Below, piece after piece: positions 31,242 through 48,949 of a DNA stretch of 64,000 nt. Made by a program: the position numbers and the translations under genes. The stretch comes from Candidatus Cloacimonadales bacterium (GTDB lineage: Bacteria; Cloacimonadota; Cloacimonadia; Cloacimonadales; JAFGVF01): contig OY762964.1 in the NCBI GenBank assembly GCA_963667035.1, positions 352,001 through 416,000 on the forward strand, given 5' to 3'. Below the pieces are notes generated by a model, which saw nothing but the letters and a program-made list of their open reading frames with translations, ran no database searches and was not told the origin of the DNA. Positions within the stretch are counted from its first letter, which is position 1. Every line of letters starts with the position of its first letter.

Positions 31242-31242
31242 T

Positions 31243-32253
31243 TTACTTCACTACTACAACCTTCTTAGCTAAAGTCTTATTCTCTTTTGATTTAAGAAAA
31301 TAGAAACCATTAGCAAGATTACGAGTATTTACTTCTCTGCTCCCGTCTATATCCATAACTTTTCTTCCCTTGATATCATACAATGCAATATCCGATATTT
31401 CATTATCCGCTTTCAGTTTGAAGCTATCTCTACAAGGATTGGGATAAACAGACATTGTAGGAATAGGTTGTATGTGCTCTTCATTATCGGTAGGAAGATA
31501 TTGATAAACAGAACGATAGTATAATTCAAGATTGTCTGAAGCTGAAGTGCCGTAAGAACTCACAGTTTCAGCTAATACACCATTTTCATAAGTGTTAACT
31601 GAATGAAAGGAGTGATACTCTGTTCCTGAATTCAAATCTGTATTGAACATATCCGTTTGAGATATACCGAATTCATTATAAACATACTCGGTTCTGTTCA
31701 TTTGAACCCACCCTCCATAGTATTCAATATATGAATAAGAGATAGAACTTGTCAAATTGCCATTAGTATATGTATATATATCATATAGTTCCATGTCACC
31801 ATAATCAGAATAATTAGTTTGATTCATCCTATACAATTCACCATTTTGCCATAAATTATCCCAAACAGCTGAAACTTCCCATGCTCCATTCTCCCATACA
31901 TAATAGGTTTTTAAATCAAGACCGTCTTCGCAATATTCATATTCCATCTTAGCGGTTAACAGCCAAGAACCATTATTATTTTCATAGTACATGTCTTGTA
32001 TAATATCACCGTCTTCATTATAAGTATTTTCATACTTGTATTGCTGAGTTCCTGAATCAATAATCCCATTAAAGGAGATTGTGTAATCAACTAAATTGTC
32101 ATCATCTGTGTAAAAATAATCAGTATATCTATTCTGTTGCCAGCCATTGCTATATTCGTAGCTAACTATCTTGTTGATTCTTGGGTCTCCATCAGTTGCT
32201 ATCAATATCATAAATGATGAAAGTATTAAAAGTAATAATATAGTTTTTTTCAT
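31243..32253 (-). CDS. Secreted Tyr-rich repeat protein with T9SS-type C-terminal sorting domain
   Basis: Signal peptide, repeated 'EY.Y..G' units, 'VYPNP..YDIKGR..GFYFL'. Confidence 0.8.
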   Translation of the reverse strand: MKKTILLLLILSSFMILIATDGDPRINKIVSYEYSNGWQQNRYTDYFYTDDDNLVDYTISFNGIIDSGTQQYKYENTYNEDGDIIQDMYYENNNGSWLLTAKMEYEYCEDGLDLKTYYVWENGAWEVSAVWDNLWQNGELYRMNQTNYSDYGDMELYDIYTYTNGNLTSSISYSYIEYYGGWVQMNRTEYVYNEFGISQTDMFNTDLNSGTEYHSFHSVNTYENGVLAETVSSYGTSASDNLELYYRSVYQYLPTDNEEHIQPIPTMSVYPNPCRDSFKLKADNEISDIALYDIKGRKVMDIDGSREVNTRNLANGFYFLKSKENKTLAKKVVVVK

Positions 32254-32418
32254 TAAGCCTCCTTAGCAAAGATGTTTAAAACTATATTTGATTTGTAAAG
32301 AAAAAAATATATATCAGTGAAATGTAGTTGAATTGTATCGGATATGAATAAACTTTTGGCTTGTCTCTACCTTTTTTGTTGACATCCAGGCATTAACTTT
32401 TTTTTCTGCATATCAGAT

Positions 32419-32494
<76 letters not shown>

Positions 32495-32505
32495 CCTTTT
32501 AGAAT

Positions 32506-32534
32506 AGGGCTAACAATGAGTTAGCCCTTTTTTT
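32506..32534 (+). terminator. tRNA terminator
   Basis: AGGGCTAAC/GTTAGCCCT plus long T-run. Confidence 0.85.
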
Positions 32535-32903
32535 GTGTTGAAAATACCCTATTTACAAGTGTTTATGACTCTTCTTACTTGTAAATTAGTTATACTATAC
32601 ACTAATAATTGCAGAAGATAAAGAAAATCTAATCTGTTTACAAATTGGATAAAGTCATTATAGATGCCTTGTTTTATAACCTATAGATTAGCAATTGTTA
32701 GGATATAGATATTCATAGCGAGTTTCGGAAATGCCACTTAAAAAGCAAGTATAGATGAAATGGGCATATGTGTCAGTAAACTTACTAATCTAAACATAAT
32801 CAGTCACAAAGCCTATAATAGTTTACTTAGTATAATCATTGTTTAGTACCTAATATCCTAATAGTGCTATAAATAGTTATTTTCAACTCCGACTAAAAGA
32901 AAA

Positions 32904-33232
32904 CCTCCTAGAGCGGAGGTCAATTTCAACTTTTTGGCATTGAAATGGTCTATGTCCCAACAGGGGCATTTGTCGTAACCCCTCCTTATGCGGAGGTCAA
33001 TTTCAACCTCAAATTCAATCCAAGAGAACTCGGAATGGCTAGTGTGTCGTAACCCCTCCTTATGCGGAGGTCAATTTCAACATGAAATGGTAGAAGAATA
33101 TATTGGATACTTTGAATAATGTCGTAACCCCTCCTTATGCGGAGGTCAATTTCAACACTAGGCATGGCTGTAGTGATGTCTTGTCTCATACAGAAAGTCG
33201 TAACCCCTCCTTATGCGGAGGTCAATTTCAAC
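32904..33232 (-). CRISPR. CRISPR array 1: 4 full 36-nt repeats, 1 truncated repeat, 4 spacers
   Basis: GTCGTAACCCCTCCTTATGCGGAGGTCAATTTCAAC at 32972, 33046, 33121, 33197; partial TAGA-variant at 32904-32930; leader on the right. Confidence 0.97.
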
Positions 33233-33515
33233 CGCTACCATTTTCAACCCTCTGATAATGCACGTTTAAAATCCCATTTCTGCGAGTCTCCAAAAAATGA
33301 CCTAAAAAAAACCATTTTTAGAGAGGTCTGCAGGATTTCGTGTAACTCATTGATTACCAACAAGATACAAAGAAAGACAATAAACATAGATAAATGCTTA
33401 TTATACAATAGCTTACACGAATAGTCGGAAATAGTTTGCTGTATTAAATATAAGCAAAAATCGATTCACCGAAAAATTAGGTAATCTGCGGTACAGGTTG
33501 CTATAACCTGCACTT
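33233..33515 (-). promoter_or_regulatory. CRISPR leader 1
   Basis: Abuts the first repeat; homologous to 46420-46702; IHF-consensus match AATCAATGAGTTA on minus at 33343-33355. Confidence 0.85.
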
Positions 33516-33634
33516 TGCATGATTCTTAAAAAACTACTCAGCTTACAAACACATCTATCACACTTTCAATTAGCAATATACGATATATACTTAAATCATA
33601 AAAACAGTCAATATAAATCAGTTTTTCAGAGTGA

Positions 33635-33901
33635 TTATTCAACAAAAAAGAAAAGTTCCGGTAATTCTTCGCCAATCACTTTCGAGTTTTTAGTACAATT
33701 CTTACACAATCTGAAGATATGAACTATGCCATCATCTTTTCTAATTGTTTCAATATCTCTCCTGATATGTTTAATCTTATTAGGTGTAGCTTCAACCAAA
33801 AACAAAGACTTCTGAATTCTTAACCCTTTCTTTTCTAAGTAGTGAGCAAGCTTAGTTCTTATCTTGTCACATGTAATATCGTAAGCGATAATATATGTCA
33901 T
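33635..33901 (-). CDS. cas2: CRISPR-associated endonuclease Cas2
   Basis: 'YIIAYDI', 'GLRIQKSLF', 'LCKNC', 88 aa. Confidence 0.96.
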   Translation of the reverse strand: MTYIIAYDITCDKIRTKLAHYLEKKGLRIQKSLFLVEATPNKIKHIRRDIETIRKDDGIVHIFRLCKNCTKNSKVIGEELPELFFFVE

Positions 33902-36465
33902 AAGAATCTATAAGCTTTAAACTTAACACCAAGCAATAGAGAATTTTTAAATGATCTGACCATCTTCTCAATCCATACTTCATAGGTATATGATTGATTT
34001 TTAACGCTAATCTCTCTCTTCATAGTTGACTCAAATGCTCTGATAAAAGTTCTGAAACCTACAGAGTCAAGTTTCAAATATGACGAACCATCTATACTAT
34101 AAAAATTACTCTTAGTTATCTGCTTCTTGTGAATCAATGAAAGAACTATTCTATCAATAAGAAAGCGGAAGCATTCCATTAAGTCAGAAGCCAGTGCTTC
34201 ATGCGTTCCTCTTCCCATGTGAAAGATTCCGTTAAAAGAGTTGATTCCGTTTGCAATTAGTGACTCAGAGAAACGCCTATAGAGTAGTGAATATCCAAGT
34301 GATAAAAGAACATTGACCGGACCAATTGGAGGATGGTAGGATCTTGATTCAAATGGCATGGGAGCTATTAAATCTCTAAAATGCTTGAAGTATGTCTTAG
34401 CGGCATAACCTTCCATACCTCGGATTGATTCTATTGAGTTAGACTGTTGAATCTTATTTAGCATGGAGCCTAGTTGCTTCTCATTAATCTTTAATCTTTT
34501 AAGTAGTCGATACTGGTTTACAATCTTTGTATAGGCAATTTCTCTAACAAAATCAAGTTTGAAATTTGAATAGTCATAAGAGTTACTAGCATTGAATAAC
34601 TCAGCGGTATTCGATATCTTGTTATGAGTTAGATATCCCCCCAAGGGTCTTCCATGAATAGAAAGAAAGTAGATAGGTATCTGCTCTCTTATAGCTCTGT
34701 AGATAATTCCTCCGCTTATGCGAGGTTTACCAAAGATAAGGATTCTGCTTATCTCCTTCCATGTATATTTTGTTGTAGATTCTTTTGATTCAACGAATAT
34801 ATAATTTCCCCTTGTGCTTGCATACTTAATCGAAAATGACAAATATAGCGGTTTGGAATTGCAGTTTGTCAGTTTAGAAAAATCAGACCAATCGGTATTT
34901 TCAATCGGTTTTCTCTCAGGAATGAAGATGGATGATTCAGAGATTCTGTAGCCTAGGAAGCTTAATTGTGATGCTTGGGTAAACTCCAAATACTTATCCT
35001 CGTTTATCTTCAATCCTAAGTGTGTTAGCATTTGCTTTATCTGATTCAATATTTCTTCTTTATTATCGGTTTTACCTACAATAACCATATCGTCAGCATA
35101 TCTGATAAGTTTTAAATCTTTCCTGTTTCTAAACCAACGGTCAAATGCTAGCATTGCAAAGTTAGATAGAAGAGGTGAAAGTGTATTACCTTGAATAAGT
35201 TTCTTGGAGAAATACTTAGCTATAAGTTCTATCTCTTCCTGAGCAACAGATTGTGCTTTAAGCATAAGAATAATTTTAGAGATTGATATAGAATCAAAAA
35301 ATGCACTTACATCAAGCTTCAGGCCCCATTTAAAACCTATATCAAACTCTTTTTTTACTGCAGAGGCAGCTAAATGATGAGAGTATCCCTTTCTATAAGC
35401 GAAGCAACTATATGTTAACAACCTTTGGAGTCTCTTGTCAAAGATGTCTGTGAGAATTGAAAGAACCAGTTTATCTATAATCCTATAAGAGGCAATGTTT
35501 CTATAGTTCCCGTTCTTCTTTTTTGCTCTGAACATATCCGGAGGTGAAGGATTGTAATCCGACATTACTATCTGATTGGATAGCTTTCTTAAATAATCGG
35601 GATGCTCTAAGAGTTCTGCACCTGTCATATCATTCCCGGACTCATTGCTTTCTACAAGCTCTTGCAATTTTGAGTGGAGATTGGAAAATGAGAATTTTGA
35701 GTGATGAAGAGTATTCATATCATATATCGGGTTAGGTAATTCTTCAACATAATAGAATCCGAACCCAAAAGTTCTATTCTTTCCAAGACCGGTAAATTGC
35801 CCCCAATGAAACAGTTTCAGTAACTCTTGAGAAAATGTTCCTCTTAGTACTATCCCTCCAATAATCCCACCAATTGTTTTTTTATACTCAATATCTAACC
35901 AGATGAAGGAGCTATTGCTCATACAGATTCCTGAAGTATCGGGAACAGAAAGTTCAAGAGCATTACTTAAGTGCTGTATGAATTCAGCTAAATCAAAGTG
36001 AAAAGGGTGAAAGAATCTTCCTTCTGATTTATCCATTCGTTTTAAACGTAGAGGAGCTTGAAAGATAAGTGTTATCTTCTTCAAGTTCTGAGTAGTAAGA
36101 TTTGAGTCTGCATGGGGTTGAAATTCAAAATAGTTCCAGTTCTCTAATACAATAGTTTCATTTAATACAAAATGATTGCCTCTAGTGATATAGTTCTTCT
36201 CATTAGTTTCAAACCATTTCAATAGTACTAATCTTCCTTCATTATTTGTTGCTATGTTGACCGGGACAATATCATTTTTCTTCAAAGTATCAGGAGATGG
36301 ATATGGAATAATGTTTATTTCCAGTTCTTTTGCAGAATTATCAGAGACTTTTCTAAGCTCGTTTCTAAATAAAGCACTCCAATGTATACCTGTATATATT
36401 GGCAAGTTAGTTATATCATTAATAACTTTGAATTGAATGTTGAACCAGTAACGATAGTACTTCAT
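33898..36465 (-). CDS. cas1: Cas6-reverse transcriptase-Cas1 triple fusion
   Basis: N-terminal Cas6 with G-loop 'GLGKNRTFGFG'; RT 'LDVSAFFDSI', 'QGNTLSPLLSN', 'RYADD'; Cas1 'RGMEGYAAKTYF', 'NVLLSLGY', 'GIFH', 'LASDLMECFR'. Confidence 0.95.
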   Translation of the reverse strand: MKYYRYWFNIQFKVINDITNLPIYTGIHWSALFRNELRKVSDNSAKELEINIIPYPSPDTLKKNDIVPVNIATNNEGRLVLLKWFETNEKNYITRGNHFVLNETIVLENWNYFEFQPHADSNLTTQNLKKITLIFQAPLRLKRMDKSEGRFFHPFHFDLAEFIQHLSNALELSVPDTSGICMSNSSFIWLDIEYKKTIGGIIGGIVLRGTFSQELLKLFHWGQFTGLGKNRTFGFGFYYVEELPNPIYDMNTLHHSKFSFSNLHSKLQELVESNESGNDMTGAELLEHPDYLRKLSNQIVMSDYNPSPPDMFRAKKKNGNYRNIASYRIIDKLVLSILTDIFDKRLQRLLTYSCFAYRKGYSHHLAASAVKKEFDIGFKWGLKLDVSAFFDSISISKIILMLKAQSVAQEEIELIAKYFSKKLIQGNTLSPLLSNFAMLAFDRWFRNRKDLKLIRYADDMVIVGKTDNKEEILNQIKQMLTHLGLKINEDKYLEFTQASQLSFLGYRISESSIFIPERKPIENTDWSDFSKLTNCNSKPLYLSFSIKYASTRGNYIFVESKESTTKYTWKEISRILIFGKPRISGGIIYRAIREQIPIYFLSIHGRPLGGYLTHNKISNTAELFNASNSYDYSNFKLDFVREIAYTKIVNQYRLLKRLKINEKQLGSMLNKIQQSNSIESIRGMEGYAAKTYFKHFRDLIAPMPFESRSYHPPIGPVNVLLSLGYSLLYRRFSESLIANGINSFNGIFHMGRGTHEALASDLMECFRFLIDRIVLSLIHKKQITKSNFYSIDGSSYLKLDSVGFRTFIRAFESTMKREISVKNQSYTYEVWIEKMVRSFKNSLLLGVKFKAYRFL

Positions 36466-38045
36466 TGCTTGGGAAATGGTGACAACTTCAATATTCTATC
36501 AATTAGTACTTCTTTAAGTATTGGTAGCCAATTGATAAAAGTAATATGCTTCATGCTTTCTATTTCGGAGATAATCAGTTTAATTGTTGAACTTTGTTCT
36601 TCTATCTTGTTAGTACCGTGATTCAAATTAATGCCTAGACATTCTTCTATAGTTCCTAAGTTTATTGGCTTTCCTTGATGAATAAAATCATTACGTTCTA
36701 ATGAAAGTCTTTTAATCTTATCCATAATGGACATTATTGAATCAAAATTTACGCCTTCTTTTATCCCTTGGCTAATAATCATGTTATAACTTATCCAATT
36801 GGTTTTATAATAAGTTTGTTCATCTGCAGTTTTCCTATCATTAGTAACTGTCACTTTTAAAAAATAAGGTAGCTCTACTTTAAAGGGGATATGTCTCAAG
36901 TCGAAGAAGAACTTCTTAGGTTTATTTCTATCAGCCTGTATAAAAACAACGGATTTAGAACCAATAGTTTTAATCTTATCCATTATCAGTAACTCACCTG
37001 TAGAAATAAGGGTAGTACTCATACCCCACCAATTTCCTTTTCTTGATTCCTGAATTGATCTCAACAAGTTACAACCGACAGCATTTTTAGAATCAAGCAT
37101 CTCATTCATTGTTATCAATCGTGTAATCAGATTACTATTCTTATGTTCTTTCTTGTAAACATCGATTAATTTCTCTGTTTCCTTTTTATCTCTATACAAC
37201 CATGATACCGCAATCTCCAGTAATCTGAAAGCATGAATGTCAAGTCTCTTCAGTTTAAGCTCATTAGCAATACTAATAGCACCTAAGAAGTCATAATCTT
37301 TAACTCTTTGTAACAGTGCAAATTTAAGGGTATATTTATTTTGAATATCCTTTTTCCGGCTGATTCTTATCCTACCCTTAGATTGTTCCATTAAACAATT
37401 TCTGTTTGGGAAGTAAGCATTGATAGCAGTATCTAGAGCATTAGAGATTCTTGGCATTCCTCCGGAACTGAAGACTTGAACAGATGAGATATTTCCATTA
37501 TCTTGCTTCAAAATATCCTGCATGAAAGAGTCTATTTGTCTATATGCAAATTCGTCTGTTATATCTGCATTTCTTGCATTACAATCTTTACAAAGATTAA
37601 TAACACTTATATCATTTATATACTTTTCATAATGATTCATCATCTCATCTATAAATGATTTGATAATGCTTGAGTATAAATATGGTTCTTTTTCTAGAAA
37701 CCCTTTTAGATGAATAGATAGATTCTCTTTACTTATATGACTTCTATCAGTAGTTAGCAAAACAAGCTTGTATTCTTCTTCATTACTAAGAGATTGCAAC
37801 ATAGCTTCTGTCAAAGGGAATGTAAGACACTTATCACTTTCTATAAAGTCCTTAAGTGTTTGTTCTTGTTCTCCTTCTTTTCCAAACATAGGATTCCAGT
37901 TTAGCTCTTTCTTTTTTAATGCACATGATAGCTCACTTTGAACTTCATTAAGTGAAGTTTTATTAAAGCTGTCATAGTTATAATTTCTTCCGGATACATA
38001 TAATTGAACATCTCTCTGTCCTATGGTTTGTATCAACAGAATCAT
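36462..38045 (-). CDS. Type III accessory effector, CARF-like N-terminus with HEPN-like C-terminus (Csx1/Csm6-like)
   Basis: Rossmann-like start 'LLIQTIGQRD', 'VFSSGGMP', C-terminal RxxxxH 'RNDFIH'; lies within the cas operon. Confidence 0.7.
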   Translation of the reverse strand: MILLIQTIGQRDVQLYVSGRNYNYDSFNKTSLNEVQSELSCALKKKELNWNPMFGKEGEQEQTLKDFIESDKCLTFPLTEAMLQSLSNEEEYKLVLLTTDRSHISKENLSIHLKGFLEKEPYLYSSIIKSFIDEMMNHYEKYINDISVINLCKDCNARNADITDEFAYRQIDSFMQDILKQDNGNISSVQVFSSGGMPRISNALDTAINAYFPNRNCLMEQSKGRIRISRKKDIQNKYTLKFALLQRVKDYDFLGAISIANELKLKRLDIHAFRLLEIAVSWLYRDKKETEKLIDVYKKEHKNSNLITRLITMNEMLDSKNAVGCNLLRSIQESRKGNWWGMSTTLISTGELLIMDKIKTIGSKSVVFIQADRNKPKKFFFDLRHIPFKVELPYFLKVTVTNDRKTADEQTYYKTNWISYNMIISQGIKEGVNFDSIMSIMDKIKRLSLERNDFIHQGKPINLGTIEECLGINLNHGTNKIEEQSSTIKLIISEIESMKHITFINWLPILKEVLIDRILKLSPFPKQ

Positions 38046-38121
38046 ATATATTTCCTCAATTAAAGTTTAACTATGATTAACGAGTCCATTTAAGAAGCTA
38101 TTATGACTATTTGAGATTGTT

Positions 38122-40026
38122 TTATTCACAATACTCTTGCCTTCTTAACTTAGCATAATCCCCACGAATTTTTGCATGCCAACTCATTATTTGCCCATTC
38201 TCTTTTGGATAAGAACCTGTTTGAGATACAATTTTGAAATATTTCCCTATTGACTCTATAAAAGTTTGTTGCATTTTTTTATAATTAATTCTTAAGTCTT
38301 CGTTGAAACTTTTATAGTCTTCATTATTGATAAAACCATTATCAACAAAGAATTTTACTGTACCTAAACCTTTGTTTTTAGCATAACCTATCTGATGAGC
38401 ATATTTAGCTTCCTCAAATTTTTCTTCTCCATCAAGCTCTAGTGCAAGTTTAAGTAGTAAGTATTCATTTATAGTTAGGTTATTAAAGTTTACTCTAAAC
38501 TTGAAATGTATCGGTTTGTTGGGAGAGGCTTCTATAGCCTCATGCATTATCACACTATAATCTATCGGATTGCTTAGTGAAGGAGCAGGGTTTGTAGTTC
38601 TCTTGAACACTTTTCTTCCGGAGAGTCTTGTACATCCATTTCTGTTTAACGGTTCACCATAAGTAACAACTTTATTTCTATTGTTTTGTTGAAGATAAAA
38701 TTCATAAGATGATGGTTTCGGAGAACCTGTTCTAGGTAGAATAATATCTGTGGTTTTTAGATCCTGATCACAAATAGCGAAGTTAAAATGAACTTTACCG
38801 GACTTACTGTTATTATCAACCGAGTAACCAAACATTTCATCTACAATTGATTTCCCATCATCTACTTTGATATCATCAGGGAAATCTTGGGAGTTTATTT
38901 CTTTGTCAAATGCCCATGGATAGTAGAATGTTTTACCAAAAGTCTTTACATGTATAAGAGTTTTTTCAATAAACTCCTCTGAGTTTTCCCTAAGAACTCG
39001 TTTACTGCTCTCTGTATACTCGTAGAAGATTACGTCTCCTTGTTTTAGCTTAATCATAGCATCCCAGTTCTTTTTTATTTCTTTCTCATGTACATTAACA
39101 TCAAGAGGATGATCCTCTAGATGATATTTTTTAAGAGTTAAGAATGTGCTCTCGTACCCATTTTTAGTTTCTTTGTTTATCGAATGTTGGTTACCCGTTA
39201 TTCTGAAGTATTGTTTTGGAATATAGATACAGTCATGGTTCCCTGTATGTATATTACCGTTAAATAATCTTGCAAAGGTTCCATTACCATCTAGACCATT
39301 TGAATACTTGAGACAGTAAAGAGTAGTTTCTTGAGCATTGTCATCATAGTTACGTATTCTCCAACGTCCTTGTTGATTATGAAGCCTATGATTGTAAGGA
39401 TTCAAGTTAAGTCTATTATTATGTATCGTAGTGTAATTCTCATAGTCTTGCTTAGTAGAGTATATGACAGGGACATCCTTCAATGAACCAAAATGCGAAA
39501 AAGTAAGAGAATTATCATGTGTGAATAGTACTATCCCTATTCCCATTTTAACAGAATCTGATGGACGAAAATTCAAGTTAGGTCTCATGATAAATCCTTT
39601 ACTGTTAACTCTTCTCATTTTCGTGTTAGTATATGAAGCAATAAATGAGCTGATGCAACCTTTAAGGGTGTAAGGAGAAATGAGTATTCTATCGTTAACT
39701 TTGAGGGGATATATGTGTGTTGAATTACTCTCCCCATCAGAATGTTCATTTCCGACTAATAATTGGTTCAAAGCATACATTGAACAGTTTAGATAACCGG
39801 TATATAGTTTATTTCCATCCATCTCTGTTGTATTAAACTTAGCTTGTTTGATATCTTCGTGGTTCTGATTATTCTTAATCGGAATAAATGTATATGGTAA
39901 TCTGTCTCTATTGAATCTAATTCTGTTTTCCAGCTCAGTAGGATTAACATCAGTTGTATTGTTATGATTACGGTTTCCACGGTTGTAGTTTTGGTCATGG
40001 TTATGATGTTCACTTCTGTTGTTCAT
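38122..40026 (-). CDS. cas7: Type III-D Cas7 with large insertion (TIGR03986-like RAMP)
   Basis: 'PYTFIP', 'ISPYTLKG', 'SPKPSSYEFY', 'GRKVF', G-loop 'IGYAKNKGLG'. Confidence 0.88.
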   Translation of the reverse strand: MNNRSEHHNHDQNYNRGNRNHNNTTDVNPTELENRIRFNRDRLPYTFIPIKNNQNHEDIKQAKFNTTEMDGNKLYTGYLNCSMYALNQLLVGNEHSDGESNSTHIYPLKVNDRILISPYTLKGCISSFIASYTNTKMRRVNSKGFIMRPNLNFRPSDSVKMGIGIVLFTHDNSLTFSHFGSLKDVPVIYSTKQDYENYTTIHNNRLNLNPYNHRLHNQQGRWRIRNYDDNAQETTLYCLKYSNGLDGNGTFARLFNGNIHTGNHDCIYIPKQYFRITGNQHSINKETKNGYESTFLTLKKYHLEDHPLDVNVHEKEIKKNWDAMIKLKQGDVIFYEYTESSKRVLRENSEEFIEKTLIHVKTFGKTFYYPWAFDKEINSQDFPDDIKVDDGKSIVDEMFGYSVDNNSKSGKVHFNFAICDQDLKTTDIILPRTGSPKPSSYEFYLQQNNRNKVVTYGEPLNRNGCTRLSGRKVFKRTTNPAPSLSNPIDYSVIMHEAIEASPNKPIHFKFRVNFNNLTINEYLLLKLALELDGEEKFEEAKYAHQIGYAKNKGLGTVKFFVDNGFINNEDYKSFNEDLRINYKKMQQTFIESIGKYFKIVSQTGSYPKENGQIMSWHAKIRGDYAKLRRQEYCE

Positions 40027-40516
40027 GGTACAACCTCCATTCGTCTTTATCTCTTAATACTAATATGTCATTCGAATCCAAATTTTCAGGAATAGCTCCA
40101 ATGTCTTGAGCAAAAGAGAATCGATAATTTCTGTTTGCAGATTTTGAATCCAAAACTTTACTCTTCCCTTCTTTCTTTGAATGTAGTATTTCAAATTCAA
40201 ATTTTTCTGCTTTATCCCTGCTTATTTCAGATAGATGATAAACATAGTCTTTGCAAGAGCTATCTGTTGCAATAAATAGGAATTGTACATCATTGTTAAA
40301 AAATACTAATCTGATACAATCAGAGTAGCTTTCAAATGAATCATAATTGATTTCTTTATGTAGAAATATACCTGTATTGCCTTTCTTAGCTTTTCCCTTC
40401 TCTTTCTCAAGGACTATGTTAGCAAGACATATTGTCCATCTTCTTTCTCCTACAACCCAAAGGTTTCGGTACTTGTTCACTAGATCCTTTATCTCTTCAA
40501 ATCTAACGATATTCAT
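40010..40516 (-). CDS. csx19: Csx19-like type III-D subunit
   Basis: Small ORF between Cas7-Cas7 and Cas7-insertion, 'IRLVFFN' motif; GAGGAGG RBS before ATG 40516; assignment largely positional. Confidence 0.6.
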   Translation of the reverse strand: MNIVRFEEIKDLVNKYRNLWVVGERRWTICLANIVLEKEKGKAKKGNTGIFLHKEINYDSFESYSDCIRLVFFNNDVQFLFIATDSSCKDYVYHLSEISRDKAEKFEFEILHSKKEGKSKVLDSKSANRNYRFSFAQDIGAIPENLDSNDILVLRDKDEWRLYHEQQK

Positions 40517-41726
40517 TGTCACCCTCCTCAATGCTGATATTTGGATAACAGCCATTTGCCCCTAGTGATATAAGTCTTTTATTACAACCTTCACTAATGA
40601 AATTCATTAGATCTCTAGCATCTATATCACACGGAATTCTTATCAAACCCATAGCATTAGCATGAAACAGTCGTTCTTCATTAAATTTCCCACTCCCATA
40701 AACAGCTCTGGTAAATTCATCTTCCGCATGACGTTCAATATTGATTAAGTGCTTTCTTATATCATCGTGATTTACGTTTACCATTAAATCGGGAAAGTAG
40801 ACATTCCCATGATTTGCTCCATCTTGCCCAAAGAATTCTTTCAACCATTTACTATATCCATACTTCTCCAAGTACATTGAGAATGTACCTTTTAAAGATG
40901 AACCCGGTATGTAGAGGTGTTTTCCTGTATTAACAAAAATCCCGGTAGAAGGATTATCAGCGAGACTACTATGACTAACACCACCCTTTATTAGAAGGGC
41001 ATTGGTTCCATATCCATCTTCTTCATCATCTACTGATACAACTATTTCCCAAGTATTATAACGTTTTTTTGCTTGATGATTCAGAGGTACATCAATTGAT
41101 TCTAAAGGATTTCCATCCAGATAATCACGATAGTTTTCTTTGGATATGCAAGTTTTTGTAGCTTTCTCTAATCTGCAAAAACCGTTACCGGATGTACTAT
41201 GACCTCCAAAGAAAGCTCCTTCCTTTTCCCAAGAAGTTAATACTGTTTCTACCCATCTAGTAAATGACTCAATACTCTGTTTCTTGTTCTTGAGAGAAAG
41301 ATTGTCGATTGTTATCGAGATATCGAAATCTACATTTTCAGGTTCTATTTCCCAATAGCTGAAAAGTTGTTTTTGCTCAGCCGTTTTTGTCTCTCTATTA
41401 ATTTTAACTCGATTTCTTATCATAGCGTTCGAATTGTATTGCATTAAGGATACAGTTCTAAAGATTAATGGTGATGCGTATTCTTCTTCATCTTCGGATT
41501 TAAAAAGCTTATTCCAAAGTGTTGTTTCATCTTTCGTAGGAGTAACGACATTCTTAAGAGTATCAAAGAAAACACCTGAGATAGAAGTTCCCGGTATAAC
41601 TAATTCCCCCAAACCATTCCTTATGATTTCGAAGGCACCAATAGGAGATTTCTGCCCACAACCTATATGAAGAGCAGATTTTAACTTAATCTTTGCATTA
41701 TAAATAATTTTAATCGGATTACACAT
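40503..41726 (-). CDS. cas7: Cas7-Cas7 tandem RAMP fusion
   Basis: Two RAMP units: 'LHIGCG..IPGTSISG..FGGHSTSGNG' and 'LLIKGG..YIPGSSLKG..FFG'; start at ATG 41726. Confidence 0.88.
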   Translation of the reverse strand: MCNPIKIIYNAKIKLKSALHIGCGQKSPIGAFEIIRNGLGELVIPGTSISGVFFDTLKNVVTPTKDETTLWNKLFKSEDEEEYASPLIFRTVSLMQYNSNAMIRNRVKINRETKTAEQKQLFSYWEIEPENVDFDISITIDNLSLKNKKQSIESFTRWVETVLTSWEKEGAFFGGHSTSGNGFCRLEKATKTCISKENYRDYLDGNPLESIDVPLNHQAKKRYNTWEIVVSVDDEEDGYGTNALLIKGGVSHSSLADNPSTGIFVNTGKHLYIPGSSLKGTFSMYLEKYGYSKWLKEFFGQDGANHGNVYFPDLMVNVNHDDIRKHLINIERHAEDEFTRAVYGSGKFNEERLFHANAMGLIRIPCDIDARDLMNFISEGCNKRLISLGANGCYPNISIEEGDNEYR

Positions 41727-43809
41727 TCTGCCCCCTTTTGCTCTCAATTCTCTTTTTTATTCCTAAGAATAAGAGCCTAATTAATTCATACTTATCATTT
41801 CTCTCGTTAAACTCTGAAGCATTAAATAGCTTTTCAAACTTCTCCCATTTTTCTTTATTCAATGTTGTTTTACCATGTGCTATCTCTTCCAAGATTTTTT
41901 CTGAGTCATATTTTGAATCCATGTATGAGATAATTTTACTACAGAAAGTAACTGAGCTCTCATCGGATTTATACTCTGAGAGACCTTTATTACTATTCTT
42001 AAGTTTTTCAATGAATTGAAACTGCTCATTAATTCGGTTTAGCTTTTTTATTTGGTGTATAGCAATTTTAGGGTCACTCTTTACTGTTGCATTAAACTCA
42101 GGAGTAGTAAAATTGAAATCATGGACAGGCAGGTTAACTATAAACTTACCAAATCCCTCATTTGTATTGAATCCTAAACCTTTACTTCCCAAGCTAACTA
42201 AATTCGTTATGTTTATGTTATCAGATTTCGACTCAAATAAAAAACATGAGCCTTTTTTTATCACTTTTTCTGAGAATCTTCGTAAACCTGATGTTCCAGA
42301 GAAACTCTGATGGAGTTCAGTTTCAACTTTGCTATCGATCAATTCGTATGAGTCAGGTAATCCAAAGTCTTCAGCTTTCAGCATGGTTTTGGGGTTTAGT
42401 TTATCATCATACAAGATAACATCAGATGTGAGGGTGATGGTTATCCTATCTGTTGACTTAGGAGGTTGAATGCTATCTTCTGAAACAGAGGTTATTTCAA
42501 CTATTTTTACAGGTTGAGCTCCACGTCCCACATGTAAGTTATATGTACCATTCAACCAATCATGATAGATTACTTTAAACATCTTTGCGTCTTCTATTGA
42601 ATTAAAAGAGATGTTCCCAATAAATCTTGTTCCCTTATATATCATTTCCTGAGTGAAAACAGCATTTTTCTCTGTAGTTTGAGTCGATTCCGTAATCCTG
42701 TTTCTTAGAACTAGTTCTATTTTAGGAGAATATACTTTAGCGTTTTCAGGACACATCTTTTTATCAACAAAAACTATATACTCATCACTGAAGCTTTTAT
42801 CACTTTGAGAGTTCATACTTTTATACGTTAGGGTATTGCGAGTTACGAGATTAGGAAATGCTTTTTTATCCATTGTCGTAGGAGTAATGTTCAATAACCA
42901 ATGAGGTATCTCATATTCATAACAGTCTTTTTTCCTTTTATTCAGGTAGTAATTTTTATATGAGTTGGTACTCTTACGTTTACGTAATGATAATGGAATC
43001 GGTATAACCTCGTGTTTCGCACTGGATTCTTTAGGTATAGGATAAAAGTTTGTTATTCTTATATTATCGTGGTCTATGATACTTGATTCGGATCCAAGTT
43101 TAAGAAGTACATTTCTAAACATACCTAAGGCAGTTGTTCCTTTTATATAGTTTAGAGTATGGATGATGTTTCCTGTTTGCCCTGCACCTGCGATACAGGT
43201 ATTATTCAGTAATTCAAGAATAATTCTGTAATCCTTTATATTCGTTACACCATCAAGAGATTTTACATCCTTGTCTTTATTGGGTATAATGGTTGTCTTA
43301 ATTGCACCAAAACCTCTTCGCCTTAATCCTCCAAATAGCTTTAGATTTTTGATCCCGAGTTTTAGTAAACCTTCAATTTCTTTTTCATTATTACCGAGAG
43401 TTTGGAATTCCAGGCTACAATCAAAGATTGCCCCTTTAGAACCAAATTCAATATCCCTCAAAGCACCTTTATCTTCGTCTTCGATAATGTCATCAACTTT
43501 AGTGAAAGTATGAATAACGAATGGGTTTAGGGCTGTTTCATCTTGATTATAGTTAACAGAGACATCCAAAGAACCAAGATTACCATATTTAAAGATAGAA
43601 TTGTATGATTCCCTATATTCAGTAAGAACATTTTTTACTTCTCGACAAGATTGTCTTAACAAACCTTTCAATGTCTCAGTATTCAGAGCAGGATTCCCTT
43701 CATCATCTTTCATCTGACCATCACTATATAAACCAACACAATCCATACCTGTACCTATATGAAAATCCTCAAGAGTTTCTATTTTAAAATTAATCCTAAT
43801 GAGTTTCAT
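41719..43809 (-). CDS. Cas7-Cas5(Csx10)-Cas11 fusion
   Basis: Cas7 'FHIGTG..TLKGLLR..FGGLRRRGFG'; Cas5 'YIKGTTALG..VGRG..KGSCF..GLGFNTNEGFG'; helical C-terminal tail (putative Cas11). Confidence 0.82.
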   Translation of the reverse strand: MKLIRINFKIETLEDFHIGTGMDCVGLYSDGQMKDDEGNPALNTETLKGLLRQSCREVKNVLTEYRESYNSIFKYGNLGSLDVSVNYNQDETALNPFVIHTFTKVDDIIEDEDKGALRDIEFGSKGAIFDCSLEFQTLGNNEKEIEGLLKLGIKNLKLFGGLRRRGFGAIKTTIIPNKDKDVKSLDGVTNIKDYRIILELLNNTCIAGAGQTGNIIHTLNYIKGTTALGMFRNVLLKLGSESSIIDHDNIRITNFYPIPKESSAKHEVIPIPLSLRKRKSTNSYKNYYLNKRKKDCYEYEIPHWLLNITPTTMDKKAFPNLVTRNTLTYKSMNSQSDKSFSDEYIVFVDKKMCPENAKVYSPKIELVLRNRITESTQTTEKNAVFTQEMIYKGTRFIGNISFNSIEDAKMFKVIYHDWLNGTYNLHVGRGAQPVKIVEITSVSEDSIQPPKSTDRITITLTSDVILYDDKLNPKTMLKAEDFGLPDSYELIDSKVETELHQSFSGTSGLRRFSEKVIKKGSCFLFESKSDNINITNLVSLGSKGLGFNTNEGFGKFIVNLPVHDFNFTTPEFNATVKSDPKIAIHQIKKLNRINEQFQFIEKLKNSNKGLSEYKSDESSVTFCSKIISYMDSKYDSEKILEEIAHGKTTLNKEKWEKFEKLFNASEFNERNDKYELIRLLFLGIKKRIESKRGQNV

Positions 43810-45298
43810 TCTGTCCTCCGGATTTGACTTTACAGAAATCCATTAACTCAATAATATCTAGAGCTGTATTCAAAAGTATGTTGTCACCTAAGGAATGATA
43901 TTCAATTAGATTGCTCGGGAAATTTAAATACTTGCTTAATAGTTCAGTATTAGCTTTTCCTGTTTTCAGTATAGTTCTTAATTGCTTGTATTTGTTTCTA
44001 CCTGCAGCATCTTTTTCATTGGTAGCTAAATTGTGTTCATTTTTTGATTGTTCCCATATTTTCATAGCTGTCTTAATTCTACAAGGTCTCTGAGTTAGTA
44101 TTTCGATTGTATCTTCATATTTGTTTAGATAGTTTATCTCTCGAATGGTTTCAATATCTTCGGAACCTGATGGGAAATGTACATGCCAGTCAATTGTATT
44201 TACGTATTCAATACTATCATCTACATTCCAAATTCTACTTTTAACTTTTGCTGAAGAAAGTAAAGACTCTGCTAATGCGTGAGCTTGTGAGAACGGATAT
44301 GTGTATTTCGTGAAAGCTATTCCCGCTGAAATGGTTGTATTAGATAAAGCTGTACAAAACTTGTCTACAATATCAAATGCGATTTCAGGAACCGATATTA
44401 TTAACAAATCATCTCCTCCCAGCATTAAGACCTGATATTTATGATTGTCATGGATTTTACATGATGCTTCCAGAGCCTTTCGGTAAGCTTCTCTTCTCGA
44501 GAACCAGAACTTTTCATATTCAACTAATGTCTCAAACATGGGCTTTAGTTTTAATAACTCTCTTTTATCTTTGAAACAGTCCCCCATTGCATTACCATCA
44601 ATTGCAATTACTGCCATTTTATTGTTTGACGGAATTATTGAAGCCTTTGCAAGACTCTCAAAGTCAACTGGCATATTATCTGCTTTATTTGTTTCTTTTA
44701 GAAAAGTGGATAGAAAATCTGAAGTTTTTCTACTGTAGAAGTCTTCCCCCTGTTTCTTAATATGTTTAGAAAACTGGCTTTCATTTTTACTTTTTACTAG
44801 TTGAGGATTAATCCCATCATCCGAGGGGTAAAAGTACGGATTATCAATAAATATGTCGCTTGGCTCTTTACACAGTGTTTCTGTTCCTTTATCCTTGAAA
44901 TCATCAAGTGTCTTTATCTCCTCAAAATCACATTCAATGCATCTTATTGAGAGACTAACTCCCGGAATTATTTCCTTTCCTCTATTAAAAGCTGATAAAG
45001 CGAACTCCTTTGCCTCTTCAGATGTAGTAAATAAAGAATCGAAATGCCCACCTGCCGAACTGATTATCCCTTTCTCGAAATTTGCTTTCAAATCATCAGT
45101 TTCCCACTTCTCGTTAATCTCTATACTTGATATATAGTTAGTCCACTCTTCTGGAACATCATATTTTTCTCGAAGCTTCGGAAGTTCCTTCACAAAGAAT
45201 TCTCCAAGCAGAGAGTTTGCACCCAACATTGTTTTAAGTTTTGGAAGTTTAAAGATAAATGATTGTACTTTATTTGTTTTTAGGAATAAATAGACCAT
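43796..45298 (-). CDS. cas10: Cas10, HD-less, intact GGDD palm
   Basis: 'VQSFIF..L....GANSLL', 'SAGGHF', 'IDGNAMG', 'LGGDDL', 'ISAGIAF', 'AESLLSSAK'; only 500 aa, no N-terminal HD domain. Confidence 0.95.
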   Translation of the reverse strand: MVYLFLKTNKVQSFIFKLPKLKTMLGANSLLGEFFVKELPKLREKYDVPEEWTNYISSIEINEKWETDDLKANFEKGIISSAGGHFDSLFTTSEEAKEFALSAFNRGKEIIPGVSLSIRCIECDFEEIKTLDDFKDKGTETLCKEPSDIFIDNPYFYPSDDGINPQLVKSKNESQFSKHIKKQGEDFYSRKTSDFLSTFLKETNKADNMPVDFESLAKASIIPSNNKMAVIAIDGNAMGDCFKDKRELLKLKPMFETLVEYEKFWFSRREAYRKALEASCKIHDNHKYQVLMLGGDDLLIISVPEIAFDIVDKFCTALSNTTISAGIAFTKYTYPFSQAHALAESLLSSAKVKSRIWNVDDSIEYVNTIDWHVHFPSGSEDIETIREINYLNKYEDTIEILTQRPCRIKTAMKIWEQSKNEHNLATNEKDAAGRNKYKQLRTILKTGKANTELLSKYLNFPSNLIEYHSLGDNILLNTALDIIELMDFCKVKSGGQNETH

Positions 45299-45518
45299 TG
45301 AAATCCTCCTTCATAGCATTGACTTGTTATCCTACATTTATAATTAAGTAAACTGCTGTTTTCGAGCAATTACCCTTTGAGCTTAGATTTACCTGATTAT
45401 TCAAAACCATGAATCTATAGATAAGCAATTATTCTTTCCGGTATCAAGTAGCCTTATAGAAAATACCTCAATGCCGAAACTCCGTATTATTCTCTTGGCT
45501 CCCGCTTCTTTTTGATCT

Positions 45519-45600
45519 TTTGGTCTACTCTTGCATTACCCTTGGGTTTCCCTTGCAAAGTAAGGGAAACCCAAGGGTAATGCAACGGAAACCTAAGCTT
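45519..45600. repeat. 11-nt-phased inverted-repeat element (CTTG/CAAG core)
   Basis: TTGCATTACCCTTGGGTTTCCCTT / AAGGGAAACCCAAGGGTAATGCAA perfect IR; CTTG at 45530, 45541, 45552. Confidence 0.8.
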
Positions 45601-45805
45601 ACTTTTTCAAATTCAATCCTCTAATCGTTATCTTATCGTTTAAGGTGAAGTGTGTAACTTATCAAGATTAAAACCCGATTATGGAACTGATAAACTGAGA
45701 GCCAATCAAATCGATGAAGGACTGATTGCTTGGATTTATCAATGTAATTGTATTTAGAGGAATGGGATTATTAATTAATCTCTAATGAAAACTGTTTATA
45801 TTTTC

Positions 45806-45835
45806 AAAAATCCTCTGCCGAAGCAGAGGTCATTA
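45806..45835 (-). terminator. Likely terminator of array-2 transcript
   Basis: Minus strand CCTCTGC-TTCG-GCAGAGG then ATTTTT. Confidence 0.65.
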
Positions 45836-45955
45836 TCTTCTGAGATTCTTCTTATTATCGCATTATTGCAGAGTTCTTTCGCAATATCAGTCCTCAGTTA
45901 TATAAATAATAACAACAATTAACAATCCGGCAATCAATTACTTTTCCCCTTAAAT

Positions 45956-46419
45956 AGACTAACCCCTCCTTATGCGGAGGTCAATTTCAACAAATTTGCA
46001 AAAGTGGAAAAATCCTTCTGATGTCGTAACCCCTCCTTATGCGGAGGTCAATTTCAACACAAGACTCACTAAGAGATCTTTGATAAAATTAAGCAATAGT
46101 CGTAACCCCTCCTAGAGCGGAGGTCAATTTCAACTCTCGAAGATAACGAGGGTAACCCGATAGCCGTGTCGTAACCCCTCCTAGAGCGGAGGTCAATTTC
46201 AACTTAAAGAGTGTGGTTTATTTATGAGCAATTACATTAGGTCGTAACCCCTCCTAGAGCGGAGGTCAATTTCAACTCCTATAAAGGACAAGGAATTCTT
46301 GGCAAATGTAAAAGTCGTAACCCCTCCTAGAGCGGAGGTCAATTTCAACTATTTGAAACAATTCTAAGAGCAACCAACTGAAGGTCGTAACCCCTCCTAG
46401 AGCGGAGGTCAATTTCAAC
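45956..46419 (-). CRISPR. CRISPR array 2: 7 repeats (terminal one degenerate), 6 spacers
   Basis: Repeats at 45956 (degenerate), 46023, 46099, 46168, 46241, 46314, 46384; spacers 31-40 nt. Confidence 0.97.
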
Positions 46420-46702
46420 CGCTACCATTTTCAACCCTCTGATAATGTACGTTTAAAACCCCATTTCTGTGAGTCTCCCAAAAAAGACTCAAAAAACACC
46501 CTATTTTGGAGAGATCCGCAGGATTTTATATAACTCCATGACTGTCAATAAGATATAGAAAAAGACAGAAAAAGTGACTAACGTTAGCATTTACAAAGAG
46601 TTATGCCAATATCCATAATCCTTTTGCTCTATCAAAGACAAGCAAAAAACGATTCACCGCAAAATTCGAAGAAGCTGCTGTACAGATTGCTTTAACCTGC
46701 AT
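46420..46702 (-). promoter_or_regulatory. CRISPR leader 2
   Basis: Begins CGCTACCATTTTCAACCCTCTGATAATG, identical to leader 1, and stays alignable for about 280 nt. Confidence 0.85.
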
Positions 46703-47114
46703 TTAGCAAACTTCAAAAACATAAGCACATTGGGTGATAAGTTTACAAGCACTTCTATAATATTAACAATGATCTAGTTTAAATAAGTAACAAAACCGGA
46801 AGATGTCAATAAAAAAATGTTTTAATAGATATTAAAATAAATTATGAGGTTATTATTGATGATGTATAACTGGTAAAATCCCTAACCGGAATATTTTCCA
46901 ATATGTTAATAGGCTCATCAAGGGTACAGAAACCTTTTAAAGGAAAAGTTAGTATATGACTTGGCAGTTTCTTTAGTAGCAGTTACAGCAATTATAAGAG
47001 TTGTTCTATTTATGAGAAAATTTATTAATCGGATAATGATTCATGCTTCTTCCCAATAGAAAACGATTTCGTCTATTATGATTATAATTTAAATATGTGA
47101 GCAATTAGATTAAT

Positions 47115-47390
47115 TTGTTTTATACATTGACTGTTGAAAATGATTCCTTGATATCGAGTTGGGATGATGTAGGAGCTAGTAGTTATTCTGTATTCAATGC
47201 GAATACTTCTTTCCCAATAATGTGGGGAAACATCTCTGAAATAGGTTCTTTCGAAACTAACGGAAATAGAGTTAGTTGGGTTATTAATCTACCTGAATTA
47301 CCTATGTAGTATTATAGAGTAACCGCTACAAATAATGTTGTTATTAGAGAAATTGGACAAGCTTTATGGATTAACAATCTTAGATAAAAG
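47115..47390 (+). pseudogene. Remnant of a secreted-protein FN3-like domain
   Basis: 'SWDDVGASSYSVF...' then in-frame TAG followed by 'YYRVTA'; no clear start. Confidence 0.35.
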
Positions 47391-47525
47391 AGGTAAGATA
47401 AATGCATCTCAACCACTTCATAGTTCTCTTATTTTGTAATACAAAATAGAATGCCAACAGAATTCGTAAAATAGAGAATATTTTGTTTATTATAGCACTG
47501 AAGGCTATAAACAATACTTCCACTT

Positions 47526-47578
47526 ACTCTTAATCAACGGGTCTAGGGTTCTAGTCCCTACAGGAGTACAACCTTTTA
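47526..47578 (+). repeat. Degenerate 3' half of tRNA-Lys (att site)
   Basis: ACTCTTAATCAACGGGTCTAGGGTTCTAGTCCCTACAGGAGTACAACCTTTTA matches 32449-32501 with 4 mismatches. Confidence 0.9.
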
Positions 47579-48307
47579 TCATTTCCAAGTAAGTTTCATC
47601 TTAAAGAGTTCTTTATCATTATAAAGTATCTGGTGCTCATGAATAGTGTCACTTAGTTTGCCGGAGACTATCTCTAGTTCCTGACCAAGTTTTGCCTCAT
47701 TAATGAACAATAGCTCAATTTTCTTAAGCTCATGATCGGCTATGTATTCAGGCTTGTAATAGTCAAGGCACCAAAGGGAATAGCATGAGTTGTTAACGTG
47801 GTTGTTAACGTCTATATCGAATAGTTTCACAGTTACATTATGCTTAATGGAGAGGTCTGATTGCAAGACAATTTTATCTTTAATGGTATTACCAAAGAAC
47901 AGTTTTGAAATATCGATAGGTGCTTGTTCATAGAACTCTGATGTTCTAACAGGTTTCCTGGAATCTCGTCTTATAACAAACCAGGAACTGGAAGCATATC
48001 CTATGACTTTATCTTCCAGAATAATCTCGAATTCTCTGTAGCAGAAAAGTCTATCCATACCGGGTGACCAAGTCTTGATTGTAATCACATCACCCCATTT
48101 AGGCCATTCTTCCATATTAATCATCTGTTTATGTAGAACCCATGTCATACCTATTGCTTCCAGGTCATGATATCCCAGTCCCAGGTCTTTAGAGTGTTTC
48201 CAAGCAGTTTCTTGTAGAAATCTGGCTAATACAGGTAAATACAGTTTTCCTTTAAAATCAGTATTAAAGGATCTGACTTCATATTTGTCTTCTCTCATCT
48301 GTTTCAT
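47579..48307 (-). CDS. Acyl-ACP thioesterase
   Basis: 'WPKWGDVITIKTW', 'DIDVNNHVNNSCY'; GAGGTG RBS before ATG 48307. Confidence 0.9.
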   Translation of the reverse strand: MKQMREDKYEVRSFNTDFKGKLYLPVLARFLQETAWKHSKDLGLGYHDLEAIGMTWVLHKQMINMEEWPKWGDVITIKTWSPGMDRLFCYREFEIILEDKVIGYASSSWFVIRRDSRKPVRTSEFYEQAPIDISKLFFGNTIKDKIVLQSDLSIKHNVTVKLFDIDVNNHVNNSCYSLWCLDYYKPEYIADHELKKIELLFINEAKLGQELEIVSGKLSDTIHEHQILYNDKELFKMKLTWK

Positions 48308-48464
48308 ATTCACCTCACTTCTACTAGAAAACAACTGTTAACTTGAATGTCAAATAGTATTATCATTTTCTGAGAGTTCATTCATTTTTATTGCTGTGTT
48401 AGCCAATTCATGGGAGGTAACCCTCCAATCTCCAGATTCTCTCATGACATATAACCACAACCAA

Positions 48465-48526
48465 CTTACGAGACTCTTGCATAATCCTTGCATAAATCTT
48501 GCATAACTATGCAAGAACGATGCGAG
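48465..48526. repeat. 11-nt-phased inverted-repeat element (CTTGCAT core)
   Basis: CTTGCATAA at 48476, 48487, 48498; ATGCAAG 48509, ATGCGAG 48520. Confidence 0.8.
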
Positions 48527-48630
48527 TTTTTTGTGACATGTATGCTTTGATTTTGTGCTTGTTAATCACGGGCAAAACGGGAGATCATAACGTGAAAGTT
48601 TCATGGCAAACTCCATCACAGCATAATCAT

Positions 48631-48755
48631 CCCACTGTTTTTCCACTGTGCAGGCACTGCTAACCCGGTGTTTCAGTGCGTGGATAGTGGGATTACAGTG
48701 CCTGCACAGTGCGAGCACAGAGCGTTGACAGAATAGGGAGTGTGAGAGAACAGTG
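48631..48755. repeat. 11-nt-phased inverted-repeat element (CACTG/CAGTG core)
   Basis: CACTG at 48633, 48644, 48655; CAGTG-like at 48674, 48685, 48696, 48707, 48718, 48729, 48751; 16-bp perfect IR 48644-48659/48696-48711. Confidence 0.85.
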
Positions 48756-48949
48756 AGGGGGCTGAAATGACGTAACTTATTGGAAAACTCACTGCTTACG
48801 GTTCTATGATAACGAGTACAGCGTAAAAACTAAGAAATCATATCGTTATTGCTATTCGAGTGAAGATTTAAAGTCATAATTATAAGCAATTAATTTATTG
48901 ACAATGTTATCTAATATCTAATAATCTTAATCCATAACTGGAGGTATAC

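Follow-up and report, generated by a model that had tools for sequence, protein, structure and literature searches.

The stretch of DNA analysed here (the window, 64,000 nt) comes from Candidatus Cloacimonadales bacterium and corresponds to positions 352,001-416,000 of the forward strand of contig OY762964.1 in assembly GCA_963667035.1, a genome assembled as a single 3.10-Mb contig. All coordinates are those of the window. It carries a cas operon, apparently of type III-D, that lies between two CRISPR arrays sharing one 36-nt repeat in two loop variants, TTAT and TAGA. All six TTAT copies adjoin the operon and all six TAGA copies lie outside. We attribute this nesting to homologous recombination at the repeats between a TTAT-type and a TAGA-type sister locus, with one endpoint in each array and a linear double crossover as the likeliest route, a reading to which we assign a probability of roughly 0.55.

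The two arrays are co-oriented, stand ~12.7 kb apart and together hold 12 copies of the repeat, which reads on the + strand GTCGTAACCCCTCC, then TTAT or TAGA, then GCGGAGGTCAATTTCAAC. When the loop was left free, the repeat pattern had 12 matches in the source genome, all within the two arrays. The first-pass annotation had described the two loop variants and their placement inside and outside, and 12 of the 12 copies lie where it put them. The trailer of array 1 (32895-32930) is a degenerate TAGA copy whose leader-proximal 27 nt (32904-32930) are kept and agree with the TAGA form at 27/27 bases, with 7 of the 9 distal bases off consensus; four TTAT copies follow, starting at 32972, 33046, 33121 and 33197. 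Array 2 opens with a TTAT trailer (45956-45991, 4 mismatches at its distal end) and a second TTAT copy at 46023, after which come five TAGA copies starting at 46099, 46168, 46241, 46314 and 46384. Outside the loop and the two trailer ends the 12 copies are identical. The two forms differ at three of the four loop bases, with no intermediate among the 12 repeats, and as RNA of the - strand they fold alike (5-bp stem, 6-nt loop, -11.2 kcal/mol each), the differences all falling in the loop. The stem and the ends would thus be held, whereas the loop could drift from one lineage to another. Self-targeting was not detected, since any second match of the 10 spacers in the genome is at most 17 nt long.

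Leaders begin at 33233 and 46420. Both arrays are accordingly read on the - strand and have their new ends at 33232 and 46419, the orientation that had been assumed beforehand. The two leaders are paralogues, identical over their first 28 nt, ~76% identical over 285 nt and alignable over ~330 nt; identity is 88% across a 130-nt family made up of the final 43 nt of spacer and repeat plus 87 nt from the start of the leader. New CRISPR repeats are copies of the leader-proximal repeat, and each array therefore records its history from the trailer (old) to the leader (new). In the accessible part of one study, blocks of repeat variants are traced to such copying of the adjacent repeat (PMC2886076). 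Because of this copying, it was TAGA that gave way to TTAT in array 1 and TTAT that gave way to TAGA in array 2, and this opposite order of the variants is the telling point. By our own arithmetic, 7 of the 924 random orders of 6 + 6 copies would give the one unbroken TTAT block that is observed, a null that is too generous because repeats are copied from their neighbours. The difference at three of four loop bases without intermediates, together with the 27/27 match of the array-1 trailer to the TAGA form, makes chance convergence unlikely; a three-base change followed by an exact reversal, both by mutation, is unlikely as well.

Sample contigs agree with the assembly at both places where the variants meet. 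Runs X1, X2 and X3 belong to one sample and one study, possibly the assembly's own source and so not independent of it, and were searched as k=31 Logan contigs, which drop rare forms. A contig found in all three runs (32447-33005) contains the TAGA trailer of array 1, the spacer and the first TTAT repeat with 0 differences from the assembly, and one from X3 (46027-46128) runs in array 2 from a TTAT repeat across a spacer into a TAGA repeat, again with 0 differences. Leader 1, the entire cas operon and the TTAT trailer of array 2 lie on one contig in X1 and X2 (33231-45989). A sample in which a TTAT strain and a TAGA strain shared the junction spacers would break such contigs; they are unbroken, and both mixed junction spacers are thus physically present in the sample. 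No contig bridging a whole array was seen among the contig pieces listed for these runs. A further run (X4), of the same species label from another sample, gave no match to the locus and is uninformative either way.

If the two sister loci recombined as we infer, endpoint 1 would fall between the loops at 32912 and 32986 and endpoint 2 between those at 46040 and 46113. The interior, which extends from the trailer end of array 2 over the adjoining 657-nt stretch, the cas operon and leader 1 to the leader-side part of array 1, would be of one origin and the two outer ends of another. The likeliest route would be a double crossover with linear incoming DNA, which would either replace a resident cassette or put a cassette into a cas-less array. 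The interior holds cas genes, a leader and non-coding DNA, with no replication or transfer genes among them, which makes an incoming replicon unlikely. DNA normally enters cells as linear strands, and on both counts the double crossover is rated above a circle. The product would look the same whichever part was the incomer and whether a cassette was replaced or inserted. The first-pass annotation had proposed that a circle carrying the TTAT array, leader 1 and the cas operon recombined once into a resident TAGA array. Of that proposal, the part that is supported is the simplest account of the nesting, in which recombination had an endpoint within each array and the 36-nt repeats provided the common sequence; the single crossover of a circle gains no support, since a linear double crossover gives the identical product, and the entry of the cassette into a TAGA array is matched equally well by the replacement of a resident cassette in a locus that already had two arrays.

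The operon, its two arrays and their leaders make up a 15-kb island, non-coding ends of ~400 nt and ~770 nt included, with tRNA-Lys at one boundary and a copy of the 3' half of that gene at the other (Table 1). The block bears the pair that site-specific integration at a tRNA gene classically leaves, an intact tRNA and a direct copy of its 3' part. The copy abuts the stop codon of the thioesterase gene and within the genome matches itself and tRNA-Lys only (E 3e-16); its five mismatches would fit an old event or an element with a differing tRNA end of its own. In an Rfam scan of 30000-50000 the tRNA was the sole match. No integrase gene was found in the island, every frame of at least 60 aa being a cas gene or overlapping one; in the search for integrase remnants in 32500-32895 and 46700-47520, where integrase profiles were not run, short frames only were seen. 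Upstream of leader 2, tblastn with eight Cas proteins gave no remnant of cas2 or any other cas gene below E 1 that could represent a former resident cassette. The supposedly resident outer part of array 2 and leader 2 also lie inside the island, which the first-pass annotation had missed.

The tRNA-Lys and its terminator hairpin are 96% identical in G001, the only well-assembled genome from this genus, the contigs of G002 and G003 being too short at this site, and the terminator accounts for the first 39 nt of the stretch between the tRNA and array 1 (blastn to G001 locus L034, 92% over 39 nt). In G001 the tRNA-Lys and the thioesterase gene are convergent, in the same layout and ~10 kb apart, without CRISPR between them; the genes in between are unrelated ones, a DsrE-like gene and those for a secreted protein and a sigma-54 activator, together with that of a 1410-aa STAND-like NTPase. 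What lies at the site thus varies, but G001 is not a clean empty site. The STAND-like NTPase gene (L034, 11096-15328) adjoins tRNA-Lys where the source genome has the CRISPR island, and the tRNA-Lys locus may be a defence-gene hot spot. Beyond the island, at 48400-48800, lies a dispersed repeat family with 40 matches in the source genome, a core of ~100 nt and an imperfect 40-nt inverted repeat (48627-48728). It has many variants and a very high summed depth in the sample contigs, has no Rfam match, and recurs ~170 nt past tRNA-Lys in G003; it looks like a miniature inverted-repeat transposable element or an element of the repetitive extragenic palindromic type.

Several observations weigh against an exchange between sister loci. 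The two leader-repeat joints have 45 nt in common, at which the k=31 contigs end, so that the pairing of leader 1 with TTAT and of leader 2 with TAGA is taken solely from the assembly. The repeat, with its loop left free, is absent from 100 of 100 relatives and from the genome_contigs and metagenome_contigs collections, and the 18-nt repeat end had no match in viral_contigs. No TTAT-only or TAGA-only sister locus, empty site or donor locus was found in the 100 relatives and the three collections, and thus the search for an empty site that the first-pass annotation had suggested returned none. The nearest relative of the system (G082) is distant, its Cas proteins being 40-59% identical. The GC content of the island (33.6%, genome 35.6%) does not set the interior apart, and RecA-dependent crossovers within only 36 nt of homology are inefficient. 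Other states of the site, such as a single fused array or another cassette, were likewise not seen in the 100 relatives, the three collections or the listed contigs of the three runs. Protein-guided searches for a sister locus with the 634-aa Cas7-type RAMP (genome_contigs) and the 414-aa Cas7 RAMP (metagenome_contigs, and plasmids by tblastn) were also negative.

The circle of the first-pass annotation, non-replicating and entering a resident cas-less TAGA array near tRNA-Lys by one crossover, with the ability to leave likewise, is topologically exact for the variant pattern. The single array of such a circle needs a true end, which the trailer of array 2 with its four distal mismatches provides. 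In the accessible text of the respective papers, the excision half is documented in Haloferax (PMC6546412) and cas-less single arrays occur at a cas site in Escherichia coli (PMC3903273). Nothing speaks for a circle specifically, however, as a double crossover yields the same product. Another cell would have to be the source of the circle, which has no genes for transfer or replication, and DNA normally enters in linear form. The supposed resident would be an island holding an orphan array alone, and no empty site was found in the relatives and collections searched. The corollary that the cassette can excise gained no support either. Neither a deletion joint nor a circle joint occurs among the listed contigs of the three runs, a weak test given that such contigs drop rare forms, and the cas contig (depth 6.7, 7.2 and 4.1) does not stand out from the contigs on its flanks, whose depths range over 4.4-8.0, 6.4-7.8 and 2.6-4.5. 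On balance we consider this circle unlikely. Excision and re-entry within one genome that had begun with two pure arrays was rejected on topology, because the circle would carry both variants and would not leave an all-TTAT interior. A bolder version treats the whole segment that starts with the array-2 trailer, contains the cas operon and leader 1 and ends with the array-1 head as a self-contained mobile cassette that enters and leaves arrays as a circle with the repeat as attachment site, its own Cas1-Cas2 perhaps helping beside RecA; this is highly improbable. Were it true, type III-D systems with a reverse transcriptase (RT) could hop between arrays of compatible repeat, and the leader-array units that bracket different modules in relatives would be explained.

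Foreign DNA is not needed if each leader-proximal repeat changed by short-patch gene conversion or mutation and was later copied by spacer uptake. Both forms are at hand as templates in the same cell, the identical first 28 nt of the leaders fit conversion near the junction, and variant blocks are, in the available part of PMC2886076, a known result of copying. Yet two independent and opposite conversions, or a three-base reversion to the exact old form, would be required, and the 12 repeats include no intermediate loop forms, which renders this explanation improbable. Alternatively, only array 2 recombined, with a TAGA sister strain replacing its outer part, leader 2 and the right flank through crossovers in array 2 and the shared flank, and the TAGA trailer of array 1 being a fossil from before TTAT. 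That trailer is indeed far more decayed (7/9 distal bases) than the trailer of array 2 (4/36), as expected if it is old, and the flank that sister strains would share offers long homology for one crossover. This sequence of events is nevertheless quite improbable, since it takes extra steps (array 1 switching at three bases and TTAT spreading to array 2 before the exchange) and makes the exact nesting partly coincidental. The order of the repeats could also be chimeric, assembled from a TTAT and a TAGA strain or by a wrong path through the repeats. The runs look like mixed-community data (0.6-1.8 million contigs, depth near 3-7), no listed contig spans a whole array, and the 45-nt common joints leave the leader pairing open at k=31. 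Against an artefact stand the unbranched contigs that carry both mixed junction spacers without differences and that a two-strain mixture sharing these spacers would break, the assembly of the genome as a single contig, and a longest shared stretch of 45 nt, which ordinary reads would span; we regard it as very unlikely.

Table 1 The tRNA-Lys island and its right flank. A full stop in the strand column marks a stretch without strand.
Feature	Position	Strand	Evidence or remark
tRNA-Lys (anticodon CTT), left island boundary	32419-32494	+	ARAGORN; Rfam tRNA 69.5 bits
Non-coding stretch, tRNA to array-1 trailer	32495-32894	.	No frame >43 aa stop-to-stop
CRISPR array 1	32895-33232	-	Degenerate TAGA trailer, then 4 TTAT repeats; 4 spacers, 38-41 nt
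Leader 1	33233-33560	-	Paralogue of leader 2
cas2	33635-33901	-	TIGR01573 E 9e-16, PF09827 E 9e-17
cas6-RT-cas1 fusion, 855 aa	33898-36465	-	PF10040 Cas6 134-237, PF00078 RT 315-508, PF01867 Cas1 545-812
CARF-HEPN ancillary protein (Csx1/Csm6-like), 527 aa	36462-38045	-	PADLOC CARF_m10--CARF_HEPN E 3e-13, Csx1/Csm6 E 1e-5
Large Cas7-type RAMP, 634 aa	38122-40026	-	PADLOC Csm3 E 3e-41, Cas7_IIId; TIGR03986 E 9e-37, under its cut-off
181-aa protein	40010-40555	-	No family; same operon position in relatives
Cas7 RAMP, 414 aa	40503-41747	-	PF03787 E 9e-19, Cas7_IIId E 4e-29
Cas7-Cas5 (Csx10-like) RAMP fusion, 696 aa	41719-43809	-	Cas7_IIId E 3e-17, Cas5_IIId E 4e-16; TIGR02674 Csx10 E 8e-11, under cut-off
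Short Cas10, 500 aa	43796-45298	-	PADLOC Cas10 E 2e-50, Cas10d E 1e-44; PF22335
Non-coding stretch, array-2 trailer to cas10	45299-45955	.	Perfect 24-nt inverted repeat at 45531-45585
CRISPR array 2	45956-46419	-	TTAT trailer, 1 TTAT repeat, 5 TAGA repeats; 6 spacers, 31-40 nt
Leader 2	46420-46750	-	Paralogue of leader 1
Non-coding stretch	46751-47522	.	Short stop-to-stop frames only; no cas or integrase remnant detected
tRNA-Lys 3'-half copy, right island boundary	47523-47578	+	51/56 nt = 32446-32501
Acyl-ACP thioesterase gene, chromosomal flank	47579-48334	-	PF01643, PF20791; 52% identical homologue ~10 kb from tRNA-Lys in G001

Every gene between the arrays lies on the - strand, and none looks broken. 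Judged by its protein families, the locus apparently encodes an intact type III-D CRISPR-Cas system, the III-D models giving the best fit, and nothing in the Cas proteins appears unusual. The Cas10 has the palm/cyclase motif (GGDD at residue 294) without an N-terminal HD domain, and Cas7_IIId or Cas5_IIId models match three proteins; the matches to the NCBIfam models Csx10 and TIGR03986 fall under their curated cut-offs. The Cas6, RT and Cas1 domains reside in one protein, with cas2 adjacent and overlapping its stop codon, as in RT-associated adaptation modules. This fusion carries YADD at residue 456 and matches PADLOC Cas1_IIIb at E 1e-68. The CARF-HEPN protein (RNDFIH at residue 451) is matched by PADLOC models only, no match having been obtained in Pfam or NCBIfam. 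No match in NCBIfam, Pfam or PADLOC was found for the 181-aa protein, which is 24-39% identical to proteins in five of the six relatives' loci (L055-L059) and has no match in the sixth (L060); its position suggests a putative small subunit (Cas11). From these families, RT-Cas1 with Cas2 would insert spacers at the leader end, and the Cas6 domain would cleave the transcript at the hairpin. The effector complex would bind target RNA, and cyclic oligoadenylate made by Cas10 would activate the CARF-HEPN RNase.

The inverted repeat between cas10 and the array-2 trailer has a 7-nt loop. Its sole other copy in the genome (G000:C1:1030750-1030800, 2-3 mismatches per arm) is ~2.2 kb from an unrelated second CRISPR array, and it may be a terminator or regulator site shared by the two CRISPR loci. 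That second array, with 14 copies of a different repeat, and the Cas1 match beside it are at G000:C1:1033021-1033907 and 1034480-1035154. A third Cas1 match in the genome (1948127-1948978) has a TAA inside it. Comparison of the outer stretches and the 657-nt stretch with the relatives' loci yielded two weak matches only (57-58 nt, 76%, E 8e-4 and 2e-3), which were not used.

Among 232 genomes of the phylum, 18, counting the source genome, have a match to the 634-aa RAMP. Six of the 17 others were examined, chosen as the best-scoring with usable contigs (G091 and G152 outscored G099 but were omitted for their short contigs), with a k-mer scan for arrays on all six and a repeat finder on four. 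Arrays were present in three. In G027 two arrays with one repeat and leaders 93% identical bracket cas6-RT-cas1 and cas2 only. In G225 two arrays with clearly different repeats and leaders 81% identical bracket the effector and CARF genes only, and G082 has a single array after cas2 at the contig end, with none in the 3.7 kb before cas10. The stretches examined in G030, G156 and G099 contained no array. Paired arrays with paralogous leaders thus occur in two of the three array-bearing relatives, and in the source genome such a pair brackets everything, so that leader-array units appear to mark the module boundaries in this III-D/RT family. Given the pairs in G027 and G225, insertion into an orphan array is not needed to explain the presence of two arrays in the source genome. 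The relatives' layouts fit arrays as the joining places of modules. The arrays of G225 (L058, 2538-3321 and 12659-13365) have leaders that are 81% identical over 187 nt and repeats alike little past their last 9 nt; leader and repeat seem either to have been recombined or to differ greatly in their rate of divergence. In G030 (L056, 3520-4440) a 28-nt palindromic unit is repeated in runs between the RAMP and CARF genes, where other relatives carry a leader and an array.

One genome without a sister locus cannot show direction or mechanism. The opposite order of repeat variants in paired arrays is, on the other hand, a simple marker for which genomes can be screened. Searches of open-access text yielded no paper in which this order serves as evidence, nor one showing entry of a cas cassette into an array in circular form.

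Type III systems with RT-Cas1 or Cas6-RT-Cas1 fusions are known, for example in Marinomonas mediterranea, and the locus resembles them in having a Cas6-RT-Cas1 fusion beside Cas2 and type III effector genes. Array-to-array cassette loss and exchange of cas modules have already been published, and the locus is another example of a known event in a known type of system. The circle discussed above would have a counterpart in phage phiAP1.1, which reportedly uses its own integration machinery; unlike that phage, the interior of the source locus has no integrase or phage gene. As described in the accessible part of the preprint, prophage phiAP1.1 integrates into the repeats of the type II-A array of Streptococcus pyogenes, the CRISPR repeat serving as attachment site as it would for the circle, and its cycles of integration and excision move spacers (10.1101/2020.10.09.333658). 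Array recombination across strains was rare in four species, according to the available portion of another study (PMC4524480).

The closest parallels are in E. coli and Haloferax volcanii. The accessible text of PMC3903273 describes the E. coli type I-F site in two states, CRISPR4.1 / cas-F / CRISPR4.2 or a single CRISPR4.1-2 array without cas, and reports for type I-E that cas-E variants were exchanged, with a degenerate terminal repeat proposed as an 'anchor' that aids substitution. Here, too, each array has its own leader and a degenerate terminal repeat, and in E. coli the cas genes swap at a fixed place. The E. coli inference, however, was drawn from many strains and ours from one genome; insertion sequences, given a major role there, are not seen inside the source locus; and, in the text available, nesting of repeat variants is not part of the E. 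coli evidence. In H. volcanii a type I-B cas cassette is flanked by two CRISPR loci and is lost by recombination between them, a layout that the accessible text calls common in archaea (PMC6546412). Both loci have the cassette between co-oriented arrays with the same repeat, which provides the homology. They differ in CRISPR type (III-D with RT-Cas1 here) and in host, and the Haloferax event is a laboratory deletion, whereas the present locus preserves a footprint that points to exchange or gain between variants, with no deletion product seen. If the proposed exchange between sister loci is right, nature has left an unusually clean footprint in the nested loop variants, which place both endpoints within ~75 nt each, inside the arrays, and would support CRISPR repeats as recombination joints for swapping, losing and regaining immune modules, a view that has so far rested mainly on the strain comparisons in E. 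coli and the deletions in Haloferax.

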